From an uncultured Gammaproteobacteria bacterium (lineage in GTDB: Bacteria > Patescibacteriota > Microgenomatia > Daviesbacterales > UBA10151), in the NCBI GenBank assembly GCA_964446685.1, contig CAYUPO010000003.1, forward strand, positions 39,183 to 103,182: a stretch of DNA of 64,000 nucleotides, read 5' to 3'. A program made the position numbers and the translations under genes. The first letter of the stretch is position 1. The number at the start of each line of letters is the position of its first letter. The notes below the pieces were generated by a model. That model ran no database searches. It saw only the letters and a program-made list of their open reading frames with translations, and was not told the DNA's origin. Below are positions 3,276 to 11,880 of the stretch, one piece after another.

Positions 3276-3388
3276 GTCTGGCAGTGAGCTATCTTCACAC
3301 AACCTTGCGGATGCATTATTGTCACCGCTGTAGCGTTTGACTACTGAGTTCGGGATGGGATCAGGTCGGACCACTACGCACAAACCAC
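3276..3388 (-). rRNA. rrf: 5S ribosomal RNA
   Basis: The reverse complement reads 'TCTGGTGG...CCGAACTCAGTAGTCAAACGCTACAGCGGTGA...CTCACTGCCAGACC'. The conserved 5S loop-C segment 'CCGAACTCAG(A/T)AGTsAAAC' is present. Helix I pairing between the two ends is present with G·U wobbles. Confidence 0.75.
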
Positions 3389-3528
3389 CAGAAGTCAAGT
3401 ATAGCGTATATAGTAATTAGTATCAAGAGGGAGCTACAAAAGGTATTAAGGGGTAAGTATTAAGTATAAAGAGAAAGACATATAAGAAGGTGACTCCTCC
3501 TTAATACTTTATACTTAACCCTTAATAC

Positions 3529-4029
3529 TTAATTTGATATGCTTTTCTTGCAGTAGAGAATTGGTGCTGATGATGTTCCTAATGCACCGCATCCGGTGGT
3601 AGGAGCGGTATCCACATTGGCTTTACCTGTTGGATTTACGAGTCTTGCACATATTATATAAGAAGTTGCTAATGTATTGGCAGCATTACAGCCATAATAG
3701 GTGTACTGATAGCTGGAAACTTCTCCGGTATTGGGATCACTAGGCGGTATATTGTTTGAAAAATAACCATTAAGCACTGTTAAAGCACTAATATTGCTTG
3801 ATCCATTAATTGCAGCTAAGGCAGGATAGCCATTGTTTGTCGCGTAGTATTGCTCTAAAGCGTTTTGGATTTCGCCGATTTCATTAATTCTTCTGCCATC
3901 CCGGGCATTTTTTTGAGCCTGACCAAAAAGTGCGGTACCAATTACTGAGACAATCGCAATTATGGCTATGGCAACCATTAGTTCGATTAAAGTAAATCCG
4001 GATCTGTTTTGAAAATGGGCAGTCTTCAT
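3529..4029 (-). CDS. Type IV pilin / pseudopilin (prepilin-type N-terminal cleavage/methylation domain)
   Basis: N-terminus 'GFTLIELMVAIAIIAIVSVIG' is the class III signal (G|FTLIE). Cys pairs sit near the C-terminus. 166 aa. Confidence 0.7.
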   Translation of the reverse strand: MKTAHFQNRSGFTLIELMVAIAIIAIVSVIGTALFGQAQKNARDGRRINEIGEIQNALEQYYATNNGYPALAAINGSSNISALTVLNGYFSNNIPPSDPNTGEVSSYQYTYYGCNAANTLATSYIICARLVNPTGKANVDTAPTTGCGALGTSSAPILYCKKSISN

Positions 4030-4093
4030 CTGTAATTAGTATTTCAGTTTTGGCTGATAAAAGTCAACAACAGAGCAAAAAATGCTATTATGA

Positions 4094-9230: not shown

Positions 9231-11699
9231 ACCATAGAACAGTTATAGTTACTGCTGCCGTTCACCAGATCTTAGTCCCCAAGCTCGTCCCAACCTTGCG
9301 GCAGGAGTCACCTGAAAGTTTAAATTACTGGCACTGGGCAGGCGTCAGCCCGTATACATCAGCTTTCGCTTTGGCACGGACCTGTGTTTTTGATAAACAG
9401 TCGCTCAGTGGCGTTCGCTGCGACCCTGAAATCTTGCGATCCAGGGTGGGACATCTTGCTAACTTACGTCCAGCTATATTGCCGAGTTCCTTAAGGATAG
9501 TTCTTCCGATCGCCTTTGTATACTCAACTCGCCCACCTGTGTTGGTTTTAGTACGGTTTCTCTATGTTTCCATTACGAGGATTTTCCTGAAAACAGAAAA
9601 ATTCTTCCTTTCGGCGTCACAACTCACCTTTGTATCATGCACCTTACGGCACATGACAGCCCGACGAATCGGACCAAGAGCGGATTTGCCAACTCTCGCT
9701 AATTTGTTGCTTGCACTAGCATATAGCTAGCGAAGGTTTTCCCATTCTGTCCCCTCTTAAGGGCTCCTAGATAAATAAATTTATTTCGGACTTGTCAAAC
9801 ATAAAAAAGTACAGGAATTTTAACCTGTTGTCCATCCCATACGCCTTTTGGGGGCCTCTGGTTAGGACCGACTTACCCGACCCTGATTAACATTGGATCG
9901 GAAACCTGGGGCATTCGGCGGACTGATTTCTCATCAGTCTTTCGTTACTCATACCGGCATTCTCACTTCTAAACAATCCACCGCCTCTCACAAGTACGAC
10001 TTCACTTCGTTTAGAACGCTCCCCTACCACTTGTATTACTACAAATCTAAAGCTTCGGCAGTACATTTAGCCCCGATAAATTGTCGGCGCCACTGACCGT
10101 AGTAGACCAGCGAGCTGTTACGCTTTCTTTAAAAGATGGCTGCTTCTAAGCCAACTTCCTGGCTGTCTAAGGTCGATGACTTCCTTTAACACTTAATGTA
10201 CATTTAGGGGCCTTAGCTGTTAGTCTGGGTTGTTTCCCTTGAGACCGCTCCGCTTAGCCGGATCGGACTGACTCCTGCTACACAATATAGTATTTGAAGT
10301 TTGATTGGACCGATAGCATTGCTGCCACCAAGTCCATCCAGAGCTCTACCCCTATATTGATTGCACAGGGCTATACCTAGATATATTTCGGGGAGAACCA
10401 GCTATCTCCGAGTTCGTTAGGCATATCACCTCTAACCACAATTCATCCCAAAGAATTTCTGCTCTAGCGGGTTCGGTCCTTCACTCGTCTCTCGACGAGC
10501 TTCAACCTGATCATGGTTAGCTCACTCGGTTTCGGGTCTAAACACAGCTACTAATCGCCCGATTAGGGCTCGCTTTCACTACGGCTTCGTACAGAATACT
10601 TAGCCTTGCAGCAATGTTTAACTCACCGGTTCATTCTTCAATAGGCACGCGGTTCCACAAAAATGTGGTTCCACTGCTTGTCAACATACGGTTTCAGTTT
10701 CTATTTCACTGGGCGTCTCGCCCTTCTTTTCACCTTTCCCTCACGGTACTAGTTCACTATCGGTCCGAAAGCATATTTAGCCTTAGCAAATGGTCTTGCT
10801 AGCTTCACCCAGGATTACACGTGTCCTGGGCTACTCAGGTGTTCAATAACGGTGTTTTAAATTTTAAATACAGGACTATCACCCTCTATGGTCTTACTTT
10901 CCAGCAAGTTCTTCTATTTAAAACACATCGCATAGCTTGAATCCTACAACCCTCCAGGCCTATCTCCTTACGGAAATAGGATAATCTGAAGTTTGGGCTC
11001 TTCCCTTTTCGCTCGCCACTACTTGGGGAATCATTATTATTTTCTGTTCCTGCGCTTACTTAGATGTTTCAGTTCAGCGCGTGCCCGCCGCCAACCTATG
11101 TATTCAGTTGGAGGTACTCTATAAAAGAGTGGGTTACCCCATTCGGAAATCTGTGAGTCAAAGCTTCTTGGCAGCTCTTCACAGCTTATCGCAACCATGT
11201 ACGTCCTTCTTCGGTGCTTTCGACCAAGGCATCCACCGTACGCCTTAATGTTGAGTATATTTTGGCTTCAATGACACACAAAAAGCTTCTTGCGAATCTT
11301 TCTGCATATCTAAATTTGGCCTTCCCATTCATAACTATCGATCGGATAGTTATGATGTTTGTTTTACTTCCACCCTTGCGGGTGTGATAAAACTGTCGTA
11401 TTCACATTTTAAAGTACAAACTCCAGGACTTAAGTTACTACGTCTTCCCTGCCTTTGCAGAGTTTTAAATGAATAATTGACGAATTCACCAAGCTCTTCG
11501 GCCCGGATATGAGCTTTCAATCATTTGATTAAAAAAACTTATCCTTGCTGAAAACCAACCCAAACTCTTTGCGTCAAACGTCTTTCATAGGTTGTGGGTT
11601 ATCTTTTATTTATATTTCGGCTTACGCCGAAGAGCGTAAGCTCGCAAGCTTCGCTTATATATGTAGATAACCCGTTTAAATGTCGTTCAGACATTTAAA

Positions 11700-11760
11700 C
11701 AGTCGAACCTCCTACATCTTCACTTTTGACGAAGTCAAAAGGAGCTTCGCTCACTTTCAA
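11700..11760 (-). other. tRNA-derived fragment (duplicate of the tRNA-Ala 3' portion lacking the T-stem 3' strand and acceptor) plus an 8-bp hairpin
   Basis: 'GTGAAGATGTAGGAGGTTCGACTG' on the minus strand matches tRNA-Ala positions ~39-60, then diverges. It is preceded by the perfect hairpin CTTTTGAC-TTCG-GTCAAAAG. Confidence 0.4.
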
Positions 11761-11808
11761 TTTATTGAAAGGAGTTTACTCATTGCATATGCTTCCACCG
11801 GGCAACTG

Positions 11809-11880
11809 TGGACCCGAGAGGAGTCGAACCTCCTACATCTTCATTGCAAATGAAGCGTTCTACCGGTGAACTACGAGCCC
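11809..11880 (-). tRNA. tRNA-Ala (anticodon UGC)
   Basis: Cloverleaf with acceptor GGGCTCG/CGGGTCC that includes the G3·U70 Ala identity pair. D-stem GTTC/GAAC. Anticodon loop TTTGCAA. T-arm GGAGG-TTCGACT-CCTCT. CCA not encoded. Confidence 0.8.

Follow-up and report, generated by a model that had tools for sequence, protein, structure and literature searches.

The 16S, 23S and 5S rRNA genes of the bacterium studied here very likely form three independent units that have kept canonical order and strand and that would derive from an ancestral operon stretched in place. The stretch of DNA analysed (64 kb, hereafter the window) is, by protein and rRNA similarity, from a Candidatus Dojkabacteria-like (CPR/Patescibacteria) genome: its best named protein homologues belonged to a Candidatus Dojkabacteria bacterium, and its 23S and 5S genes were 86–98% identical to Candidatus Dojkabacteria contigs. 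A survey of RNA genes across the 64 kb, using Rfam and ARAGORN, found a 23S, a 5S and three tRNA genes. The 23S gene (7321–11258, minus strand; 3938 nt including two introns; Rfam LSU_rRNA_bacteria, 2208 bits, model positions 1–2925) was preceded by tRNA-Ala(UGC) (11808–11880, minus; Rfam, ARAGORN) and separated from the 5S gene (3276–3392, minus; Rfam) by 3928 nt holding three protein genes, one of them on the opposite strand. This is a 23S/5S separation of the Leptospira type, with protein genes between non-adjacent rRNA genes, and it was kept in relatives. tRNA-Ile(GAU) (58289–58363, plus; Rfam, ARAGORN) lay 46.4 kb from tRNA-Ala, on the strand opposite to the rRNAs, and tRNA-Cys (59428–59501, plus; Rfam/ARAGORN) lay beyond it. 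Rfam returned no SSU rRNA match in the 64 kb, including the 52.7 kb upstream of the 23S. The original prediction, made from the sequence alone, had placed tRNA-Ile(GAU) 46 kb from tRNA-Ala and the 5S 3.9 kb behind the 23S, and all the RNA genes and repeats that it listed were recovered to within one base.

The 16S gene most probably lies about 115 nt past the right edge of the window, on the minus strand. At that edge (63822–64000, minus), a 180-nt segment, which we read as the 16S trailer with its terminator, was 78.6% identical to the segment directly downstream of the 16S in two relatives, L015 and L016 (the 16S of L016 being located by blastn with E. coli 16S); because window positions 64000–63822 (minus) are homologous to a relative's 16S trailer, the gene itself is probably just outside. 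Within this homology we found the 3′ strand of a putative 16S processing stem (63943–63924, minus) and a predicted intrinsic terminator of the 16S unit (ATCCTCCTCACGGGGGATTTTTTGT, 63846–63822, minus); in L016, the trailer segment pairs with the 16S leader at 24 of 26 positions. In L016, the 16S and tRNA-Ile share a strand, the 16S being 5.8 kb upstream; here, the distance from the inferred 16S end to tRNA-Ile is 5.8 kb. The proposal that the locus has no 16S holds for the window and most probably fails beyond its edge, where the trailer implies one. A same-strand 16S just past the edge had been regarded as damaging to the idea of a dismembered locus, and such a gene appears to exist; yet, with a terminator of its own and some 53 kb between it and the 23S downstream, it would leave the genes unlinked. 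In the terms of Brewer et al., who class rRNA genes as unlinked when 16S and 23S are more than 1,500 bp apart or when no 23S adjoins the 16S, the locus is unlinked, with some 53 kb between the inferred end of the 16S and the start of the 23S.

The tRNA-Ala–23S segment carries signals at both ends. A promoter-like site (TTGACT-17/18-TGnTATTAT; 12056–12084, minus), rightly picked out in the original prediction, recurs as the same motif in the same place in the relative L005 and is conserved together with the 175-nt leader that separates it from tRNA-Ala (11881–12055, minus), in which long identical blocks are common to the window, L005 and L003. The 23S is enclosed by a putative 16-bp processing stem whose 5′ strand (AAAATGTGAATACGAC, 11395–11410, minus) is the perfect complement of its 3′ strand (GTCGTATTCACATTTT, 7263–7278, minus), and is followed by a hairpin (AAAGCTCCGCAAGGGGCTTTTTT, 7209–7231, minus) that is visibly terminator-like, as had been proposed, and that a simple scanner did not flag. 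The stem and the terminator were both kept in five relatives, with an equivalent GC hairpin and T-run in L003, L004, L005, L008 and L011. Terminator-like sites were enriched between 2800 and 12300 (17 found vs 8.0 ± 3.5 in shuffles); promoter-like hexamer pairs as a class showed no enrichment in the region (21 found vs 19.9 in shuffles), so the promoter calls are made on position and conservation. With promoters and terminators taken as predictions, tRNA-Ala–23S and 5S each look like independent transcription units. We infer that the processing stems are cleaved by RNase III, an enzyme that CPR bacteria keep (PMC12641178).

The length of the 23S gene (3938 nt) is explained by two putative group I introns inside it. 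Alignment to E. coli rrlH by blastn broke at E. coli positions 1931/1932 and 2500/2501, corresponding to intron 1 (8791–9230, minus, after position 1931; Intron_gpI 46.5 bits, E 3e-10) and intron 2 (7706–8241, minus, after approximately position 2500; 36.9 bits, E 9e-8), neither of which contains an ORF. Both matches span the full RF00028 model (positions 1–253) and are significant by E-value, at scores under the Rfam gathering score of 50 bits. L003 lacks intron 1 exactly at the junction, its sequence being continuous across window positions 8790|9231; at this conserved rRNA site the insert is thus discrete, and a relative has an intron-less allele. Both introns would have to be spliced out of the 23S. 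Group I introns are carried by CPR 16S and 23S rRNA genes (Brown et al. 2015, cited in PMC9297842), and the insertions described here resemble those, as outlined in PMC9297842, in their size of several hundred bases, in their location in a single-copy 23S and in a content that varies among close relatives; they differ from what is outlined there in that both lack a homing-endonuclease ORF and fall just below the Rfam threshold. An earlier reading of the sequence had missed both 23S introns and the 16S trailer at the right edge.

Three protein genes occupy the interval between the 23S and the 5S. The first (5835–7160, minus) is a surface-protein gene for which a dockerin assignment had been proposed; a Dockerin_1 match is present but weak, falling below the cut-off (E 1.4e-4, 22.5 bits vs 22.9). 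Its slot is variable, relatives holding genes of 116–123 aa there, to which L011 adds one for a glycoside hydrolase of 452 aa. The second (4094–5731, plus), in a conserved slot, encodes a protein with a PAS domain only, and its former label of "HK-like" has to be dropped, as no kinase domain was detected in the product even at E ≤ 5. The third (3529–4029, minus), also in a conserved slot, encodes a type IV pilin-like protein with an N-terminal methylation motif and is therefore a pilin gene, as originally read. A promoter-like site (TTGATA-17-TATACT; 3398–3426, minus) ends 5 nt before the 5S, and at the matching spot relatives have TTGTTT-17-TATTAT with a TG extension (read by eye). Behind the 5S are three tandem copies of its 3′ end with terminator (3014–3289, minus), two of which are shared by L005; the three tandem terminators proposed earlier thus comprise two clean ones (3269–3245 and 3151–3127) and a degenerate third (approximately 3066–3040). 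The promoter-like site and terminator of the 5S were conserved in relatives.

The order tRNA-Ala, 23S, small genes, PAS (plus), pilin (minus), 5S was common to six related Candidatus Dojkabacteria contigs. L003, L004, L005, L008 and L011 showed it through 5S and S1, whole or in part; L009 and L010 covered the PAS, pilin, 5S and S1 end only; and the PAS proteins of relatives were 62–64% identical. In L020, a more distant relative, the skeleton was kept with a 12.6-kb gap between 23S and 5S. Across relatives this gap ranged from 3.6 to 12.6 kb, and the additional genes in it were surface-protein genes, in agreement with the original view of what had entered the gaps. In metagenome assembly, breaks and mis-joins are frequent at rRNA genes, and many of the homologous contigs end in rRNA, which raises the concern that rRNA pieces from different organisms or loci were fused into one contig. 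Such an artefact is exceedingly improbable, since Logan contigs were 100% identical over window positions 3362–7402, 11846–15988 and 61276–63877, reproducing both junctions in independent assemblies from other samples; several different species-level relatives have the identical order; and the flanks of the 23S build a perfect processing stem across the gene. Thus, because independent assemblies match and relatives share the order, the layout is inherited rather than the product of a mis-join.

In the operon stretched in place that we favour, the first unit would comprise the 16S just past the right edge, visible here through its trailer with the 3′ processing-stem strand and terminator; the second would run from its promoter through the conserved leader, tRNA-Ala, the spacer and the 23S within its 16-bp stem to its terminator; and the third would consist of a promoter, the 5S and its terminators. 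An ancestral 16S-Ile-Ala-23S-5S operon would have been lengthened by genes settling in its spacers, each piece then gaining its own promoter and terminator. That a single ancestral operon was pulled apart by intervening genes is plausible, and separate transcription of the units is suggested by the signals around each. The original wording, in which the operon was split and dispersed, is credible as to the split, while "dispersed" goes too far for genes that have retained order and strand: along the minus strand, the inferred succession of 16S, tRNA-Ile, tRNA-Ala, 23S and 5S is canonical, though stretched across about 62 kb. The 46-kb interval between tRNA-Ile and tRNA-Ala contains core genes (GAPDH, PGK, alanine racemase and an aspartate/ornithine carbamoyltransferase-family gene), so that this gap calls for rearrangement, the mere arrival of mobile DNA being insufficient.

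The unlinked layout is already known for Patescibacteria, and three-way separation for Leptospira. According to Brewer et al., the unlinked state of rRNA genes is phylogenetically conserved and typical of lineages with small genomes and low rRNA copy number, among which Patescibacteria are named; the locus agrees with that pattern in that over 1,500 bp separate the 16S from the 23S, and adds to a survey that covered 16S and 23S a detached 5S and canonical order and strand over about 62 kb. In Leptospira interrogans 16S, 23S and 5S are completely separated, and in Helicobacter, Thermus, Borrelia and Rickettsia the 16S stands apart from 23S-5S (PMC6582327). These genomes share with this one separate rRNA units with their own RNase III-type stems and the same stoichiometry problem, but their genes are scattered, whereas here they are collinear within about 62 kb and tRNA-Ala is still attached to the 23S. 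The locus is thus a well-documented addition to a known pattern, a CPR lineage in which three rRNAs are separately signalled and the ancestral order is kept, and offers a useful snapshot of an operon coming apart in place. If the genes are not co-transcribed, the familiar problem arises of keeping 16S, 23S and 5S in balanced amounts. Moreover, it accounts for the breaking of Dojkabacteria contigs at these loci, where binning and 16S-23S amplicon linking fail.

The only parts of the locus that may represent new biology are a two-hairpin module (hp1-hp2) associated with tRNAs and the conserved tRNA-like fragments around it. Between tRNA-Ala and the 23S lies a tRNA-Ala-derived pseudo-sequence (11701–11807, minus) made of an anticodon-loop-like piece, GNRA-type hairpins and a T-arm 5′ half; the tRNA fragment reported in this spacer is real, 11701–11722 (22 nt) being an exact repeat of 11822–11843 in tRNA-Ala. 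It is followed by hp1 (GTTTAAATGTCTGAACGACATTTAAAC, 11674–11700, minus) and by hp2 (11596–11673, minus; closing stem GGGTTATCT...AGATAACCC). The tRNA-Ile site, on the plus strand, begins with an extended −10-like motif read from the sequence (TGATAAAAT, 58130–58138); in L018 the same flank, with TGGTAAAAT, precedes a plain tRNA-Ile. In the window there follow the 5′ fragment of an outer, degenerate tRNA-Ile copy (58152–58169; acceptor 5′ strand and D-arm 5′ half), hp1 (GTTTGAATGTCTAAACGACATTCAAAC, 58170–58196), hp2 (GGGTGAAA...TTTCACCC) with the D-arm 3′ half (CGGAAGAGCGC; 58197–58238 together), a perfect 15-bp stem (58270–58284 with 58367–58381) around the intact tRNA-Ile(GAU), and the 3′ fragment of the outer copy (58383–58414), in which 32 nt of the tRNA-Ile 3′ end are exactly repeated. 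The near identity of the two hairpins had been noticed before, with coordinates one base off: the hp1 copies agree in 24 of their 27 positions, one pair being compensatory, where dinucleotide shuffles give an expectation of zero chance matches. The hp1 of L015 differs by two compensatory pairs. hp1 is part of a two-hairpin module set in the loops of tRNA-derived pseudo-sequences and not a leftover of a spacer.

One possible, if tentative, explanation is that hp1-hp2 is a small mobile or intron-like insertion into the exposed D- or T-loops of tRNA sequences. Every copy directly follows a D-loop GG or a TTCGACT T-loop, and presence is at odds with phylogeny, the module being found in the window and in L015 (neighbour protein 54% identical) and missing from L018 (69%). 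It is also absent at the matching spot in the Ala-23S spacer of L003 and L005, and a 30-mer from the hp2 interior recurs exactly in a 23S insertion of L003 and L004. Two further genomes, one of Daviesbacteria (L012) and the other a MAG whose deposited name is uncultured Gammaproteobacteria (L013), have the identical 27-mer of the tRNA-Ile hp1 beside tRNA-Val, where no rRNA lies close by. An intact tRNA beside or inside the disrupted copy would let the disruption be tolerated and would give rise to the nested tRNA-in-tRNA layout. On the other hand, the module has just two copies in 64 kb, and a search of 185,579 species representatives turned up the hp1 pattern in only two further genomes. Metagenome contigs gave no relevant match (one chance hit) and viral contigs none, and some 150 kb of related loci outside the tRNA-Ile site contained no copy. 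Two copies are neither the many copies nor the spaced array of a CRISPR repeat, REP or MITE, and an Rfam scan of the module matched no CRISPR or other family. The window shows no target-site duplications, terminal inverted repeats or transposase, and the module (69–105 nt) is below the size of any known self-splicing intron.

Selection for function, rather than mobility, is a somewhat unlikely account of hp1-hp2 and the tRNA fragments, which would then be working parts of stable-RNA precursors: protein-binding or processing signals, for example tRNA-like shapes for RNase P or RNase Z and stems for RNase III. Each of the six placements (window Ile, window Ala, L012, L013, L015 and L016/L017) is sense and within a tRNA or rRNA precursor region. 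The tRNA-Ala-like core is 78–86% identical to that of L003 and L005, whereas the functional tRNA-Ala is only 69% identical between these genomes and the spacer after the core 25–34%. Both-sided changes affect 3 of the 11 hp1 pairs, and the hp2 closing stem also varies pairwise; with three distinct hp1 sequences these statistics are weak, however, 19 of 500 shuffles reaching the observed value, and a dimeric DNA-binding protein would also give paired changes in a perfect palindrome. The 281-nt Ile module is predicted to fold stably into a nested cloverleaf-like shape (z = −8.0), and the L012 module also has a stable predicted fold (z = −4.0). Yet L018, L003 and L005 manage without hp1-hp2, and pairing between the outer 5′ and 3′ fragments has been lost in L013. 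It is rather improbable, taken as a whole, that hp1-hp2 is a previously undescribed small CPR element of tRNA elbow loops (D- or T-loop), whether mobile and intron-like or serving processing or protein binding, that gives precursors with a tRNA inside a tRNA-like shell and is shared, with an identical 27-nt core, by Dojkabacteria and Daviesbacteria. That both hairpins are instead leftovers of one ancestral antitermination or processing element of the spacer after operon break-up, as originally proposed, has in its favour that both copies are sense and beside the two tRNAs normal for a 16S-23S spacer, but is very unlikely, being contradicted by the hairpin-free orthologous spacers of L003 and L005, by a window copy that interrupts a conserved tRNA-like fragment, by the hairpin-free tRNA-Ile of L018, by the tRNA-Val placements of L012 and L013 and by the lack of hp1 beside the 16S of L016.

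Integrative elements leave tRNA-gene fragments as attachment-site duplications, and the exact direct 3′-part repeats that accompany tRNA-Ile (32 nt), tRNA-Ala (22 nt) and tRNA-Cys (18 nt) are reminiscent of such scars, as is a large serine recombinase gene, present only in the relative L015, where it abuts tRNA-Ile. Unlike attachment scars, these repeats are 53–205 nt apart, enclose 21–188 nt and have no element between them; there is a 5′ fragment upstream as well, 3′-end repeats of the same sort occur at the 5S, and the window ORFs scanned yielded no integrase domain. Plant mitochondrial t-elements act as tRNA-like processing signals, and engineered tRNA scaffolds carry a cargo RNA in place of the anticodon arm. 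Although the cargo here is a complete tRNA and the D-loop has two extra hairpins, the putative precursor resembles both in that an acceptor stem and T arm surround a cargo replacing the anticodon arm, with a stable predicted fold.

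Using Rfam and ARAGORN, we placed a bacterial 23S rRNA gene at 7321-11258 (-), the 5S gene at 3276-3392 (-), tRNA-Ala(UGC) at 11808-11880 (-), tRNA-Ile(GAU) at 58289-58363 (+) and tRNA-Cys at 59428-59501 (+), and found no 16S gene within the 64-kb window. Together with a repeat search, these tools confirmed, with small corrections, the RNA genes, two hairpins and tRNA fragment listed in the original prediction; the fragment, in the tRNA-Ala/23S spacer, is a 22-nt exact repeat of tRNA-Ala. Three protein genes separate 23S from 5S: 5835-7160 (-) encodes 441 aa with a weak dockerin match, 4094-5731 (+), on the opposite strand, encodes 545 aa with a PAS domain, and 3529-4029 (-) encodes a pilin that carries the N-terminal methylation motif. 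A histidine kinase was ruled out for the PAS protein, which had no kinase domain at E<=5.

Mis-assembly was ruled out, since the junctions recur in three independent Logan assemblies and in several relatives. Logan contigs from other sequencing runs matched at 100% identity over 3362-7402 (inside 5S to inside 23S), 11846-15988 (upstream genes into tRNA-Ala) and 61276-63877. The closest named homologues of the PAS protein belong to Candidatus Dojkabacteria, and several related species, with PAS proteins 62-64% identical, have the common order tRNA-Ala, 23S, one to three small genes, PAS(+), pilin(-), 5S and S1 (the gene past 5S). The complete order was seen on two of the relatives' contigs (L003 and L005), its 3' part on three (L004, L008 and L011), and the PAS, pilin, 5S, S1 end only on two (L009 and L010). 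A more distant relative, L020 (PAS 37% identical), retains 23S, PAS(+), pilin(-) and 5S, with a 23S-5S gap of 12.6 kb in which one extra gene lies between 23S and PAS and four, mostly surface-protein genes, between PAS and pilin. On this comparative evidence, the tRNA-Ala-23S...5S layout is inherited, and the 23S-5S gap is a site of surface-protein gene gain and loss. A second 545-aa PAS-domain paralogue (13960-15597, -), 27% identical to the first, lies on the other side of the tRNA-Ala-23S unit; a cohesin or dockerin surface-protein gene adjoins each of the two, and a search for orthologues of the upstream paralogue found none.

The 16S gene was approached through L016, a contig from the same species as L015 (both carry the tRNA-Ile locus), on which 16S lies 5.8 kb upstream of tRNA-Ile on the same strand and is followed by the same neighbour genes as the right end of the window. 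The 180 nt after this 16S gene hold a terminator and the 3' strand of a processing stem (24/26 pairing with the leader), and this trailer and terminator are 78.6% identical to window 64000-63822 (-). By alignment, a 16S 3' end would lie approximately 110-120 nt past the right edge of the window; searches with window proteins for sequence beyond that edge yielded short contigs only. With 16S in this place, the minus-strand order would be 16S, tRNA-Ile, tRNA-Ala, 23S, 5S, as in the canonical operon but spread over approximately 62 kb. The collinearity supports an ancestral operon that may have been pulled apart in place. In the window, tRNA-Ile is inverted relative to the rRNAs, and the 46 kb between tRNA-Ile and tRNA-Ala hold core metabolic genes, which argues for rearrangement and not simple island insertion; a tRNA-Ile island with att repeats 46 kb apart was rejected, because the tRNA-Ile 3' sequence was found only twice, 53 nt apart. 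The split of an ancestral operon claimed in the original prediction stands, with the reservation that a 16S gene just beyond the edge on the same strand had been named there as weakening the claim, and homology to the L016 trailer would place one in that position.

In Patescibacteria, 16S and 23S are commonly unlinked, a phylogenetically conserved trait (bioRxiv 10.1101/705046), and earlier work describes both operons with a detached 16S or 5S and the full separation found in Leptospira interrogans (PMC6582327). Compared with these, the window locus is a well-supported case, unlinked by distance and fully separated by gene order, whose own features are a 5S detached across a Dojkabacteria clade and the collinearity kept. 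The main rRNA-locus finding is ordinary for its group, and a tRNA-associated hairpin module is the one item worth follow-up.

Several signals suggest that the tRNA-Ala-23S unit and the 5S unit are separately transcribed. A promoter-like TTGACT-17-TATTAT with a TG extension lies at 12084-12056, upstream of tRNA-Ala, with the same motif at the same position in L005, and the 175-nt leader from this site to tRNA-Ala is highly conserved in the alignment with relatives. The 3' end of another, TTGATA-17-TATACT, lies 5 nt ahead of 5S, a spot where relatives have, as read by eye, TTGTTT-17-TATTAT with a TG extension. These promoter calls are based on position and conservation; promoter-like hexamer pairs as a class were not enriched in the rRNA region, and terminator-like sites were. 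A GC hairpin with a T-run follows 23S (7231-7209), and a perfect 16-bp stem encloses it (11410-11395 pairing with 7278-7263), each kept in five relatives. A terminator of its own is predicted downstream of 5S, and the 5S 3' end with its terminator is repeated in both the window and L005. RNase III is retained in CPR bacteria (PMC12641178), which fits the rRNA-flanking stems. A boxA-like reading of the spacer sequence GTACTTTAAAA was dropped, as what is conserved there is the 5' arm of the stem from which 23S is processed.

The 23S gene measures 3938 nt against a 2925-position model, and its alignment to E. coli rrlH is cleanly interrupted at two points, after positions 1931 and 2500. The two inserts, overlooked in the original prediction, matched the whole Rfam group I intron model (440 nt, 46.5 bits, E 3e-10; 536 nt, 36.9 bits, E 9e-8), with scores just under the curated threshold of 50 bits. 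Neither contains an rRNA-strand ORF, and the 23S of L003 is uninterrupted exactly across the first insert site. CPR bacteria are well known to carry introns in single-copy rRNA genes (PMC9297842).

The hairpin module consists of a 27-nt hairpin (hp1) followed by a second (hp2). The two hp1 copies, in the tRNA-Ala/23S spacer (11674-11700, -) and at tRNA-Ile (58170-58196, +), form a hairpin pair of which 0 were expected by chance. The spacers of L003 and L005 contain no hairpin; at its spot they have an uninterrupted tRNA-Ala-like fragment, made of an anticodon loop, a long hairpin, a T arm and the acceptor 3' strand, and in the window hp1 and hp2 come behind the fragment's T-loop. Across genomes, the core of the fragment is 78-86% identical, above the working tRNA-Ala (69%) and the spacer after the fragment (25-34%), so the fragment seems to be under selection. 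The window tRNA-Ala, 69% identical to L003 17421-17494 and L005 10697-10770, has a 3' half that matches the relatives' downstream tRNA-like fragment and not their tRNA; by this pattern, the functional gene resembles a product of recombination between two tRNA-Ala copies.

At the tRNA-Ile locus, a plain tRNA-Ile comes straight after the flank ...aaaatgttcaagctgtgc in the relative L018. After the same flank, aaaatgttcaagctgtgc, the window has a degenerate tRNA-Ile 5' fragment, hp1, hp2, a D-arm 3' half, an intact tRNA-Ile enclosed by a perfect 15-bp stem, and the tRNA 3' end once more as an exact 32-nt repeat. This 281-nt stretch is predicted to fold as a tRNA nested in a tRNA-like shell (z = -8.0). 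L015 has the same 5' fragment-hp1-hp2 layout, inverted relative both to the window and to its neighbouring gene, with two compensatory pairs different in hp1; a large serine recombinase gene (Resolvase and Recombinase domains; 6111-7721, -) abuts its tRNA-Ile 3' end. A spliceable tRNA or two-piece tmRNA was rejected for the outer shell, which lacks both an anticodon arm and a G3:U70 pair and in which ARAGORN found no tmRNA. Farther downstream, the 3' end of tRNA-Cys recurs twice behind the gene itself (59502-59710, +), once diverged (59583-59600) and once exact (59690-59707), with small CGAAG-loop hairpins ahead of each copy; in one copy a hairpin pair is inserted after GGGTTCGACT, the T-loop site that hp1 takes in the tRNA-Ala fragment.

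A scan of 185,579 species representatives for the 27-mer pattern found it in only two other genomes, L012 (a Daviesbacteria MAG) and L013; in each, it occupies the D-loop of a broken tRNA shell around an intact tRNA-Val, far from rRNA. L013 was deposited as uncultured Gammaproteobacteria and its bin label is probably wrong, as its order of tRNA-Val, tRNA-Phe and tRNA-Gly is that of L012; it also carries a glmS ribozyme at 2768-2903 (+). Metagenome contigs gave one unrelated, non-palindromic match and viral contigs none, and a hairpin-plus-GGGT regex over 212 kb gave no further tRNA-associated copies, its only extra matches being weak stems (8 bp, two mismatches) in L015 and L016. The hp2 interior (11630-11659, -) and the 23S insertion of L003 (13626-13655, -) and L004 (11697-11726, -) have an exact 30-mer in common, TATAAGCGAAGCTTGCGAGCTTACGCTCTT, in the same orientation relative to rRNA in all three, which suggests that small hairpin modules may travel between non-coding parts of rRNA loci.

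The module could be a small mobile or intron-like insertion preferring tRNA elbow loops, as favoured by its patchy distribution, its identity across classes and the recurrence of the hp2 30-mer in the L003 and L004 23S insertion. Alternatively, selection could have kept it as a processing or protein-binding element in the precursors of stable RNAs, consistent with its invariable sense orientation, the paired substitutions and the conservation of the tRNA-like fragment. An abundant repeat was rejected on the two other loci found, and a known RNA family on Rfam, E-value scans of 58100-58440 and 11260-11830 giving only noise. The remaining reading, by which the original prediction took the hairpin similarity as an operon relic, fails on the hairpin-free spacers of L003 and L005 and on the same module at tRNA-Val far from rRNA, so that the split operon is retained without this argument and the module says nothing about the ancestral operon.

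Elsewhere, L003 (4620-5342, -) and L004 (2736-3431, -) each encode a Y1 (IS200/IS605-type) transposase at a distance of a few kb from the S1-5S region, and none was seen in the window. A small ORF (12-290, +) overlapping a PIN-domain gene (271-636, +), a pair kept in L003, L004 and L008, looks like a VapBC-type toxin-antitoxin (12-636). One ADP-ribosylglycohydrolase domain is divided between adjacent ORFs, its C-terminal half (profile 151-287) at 27434-27943 (-) and its N-terminal half (profile 1-142) at 27956-28426 (-); the pair is either one split gene, a pseudogene or the product of a frameshift in sequencing. A single 4822-aa ORF at 28464-42932 (-) is a giant protein gene of the type seen in CPR genomes.
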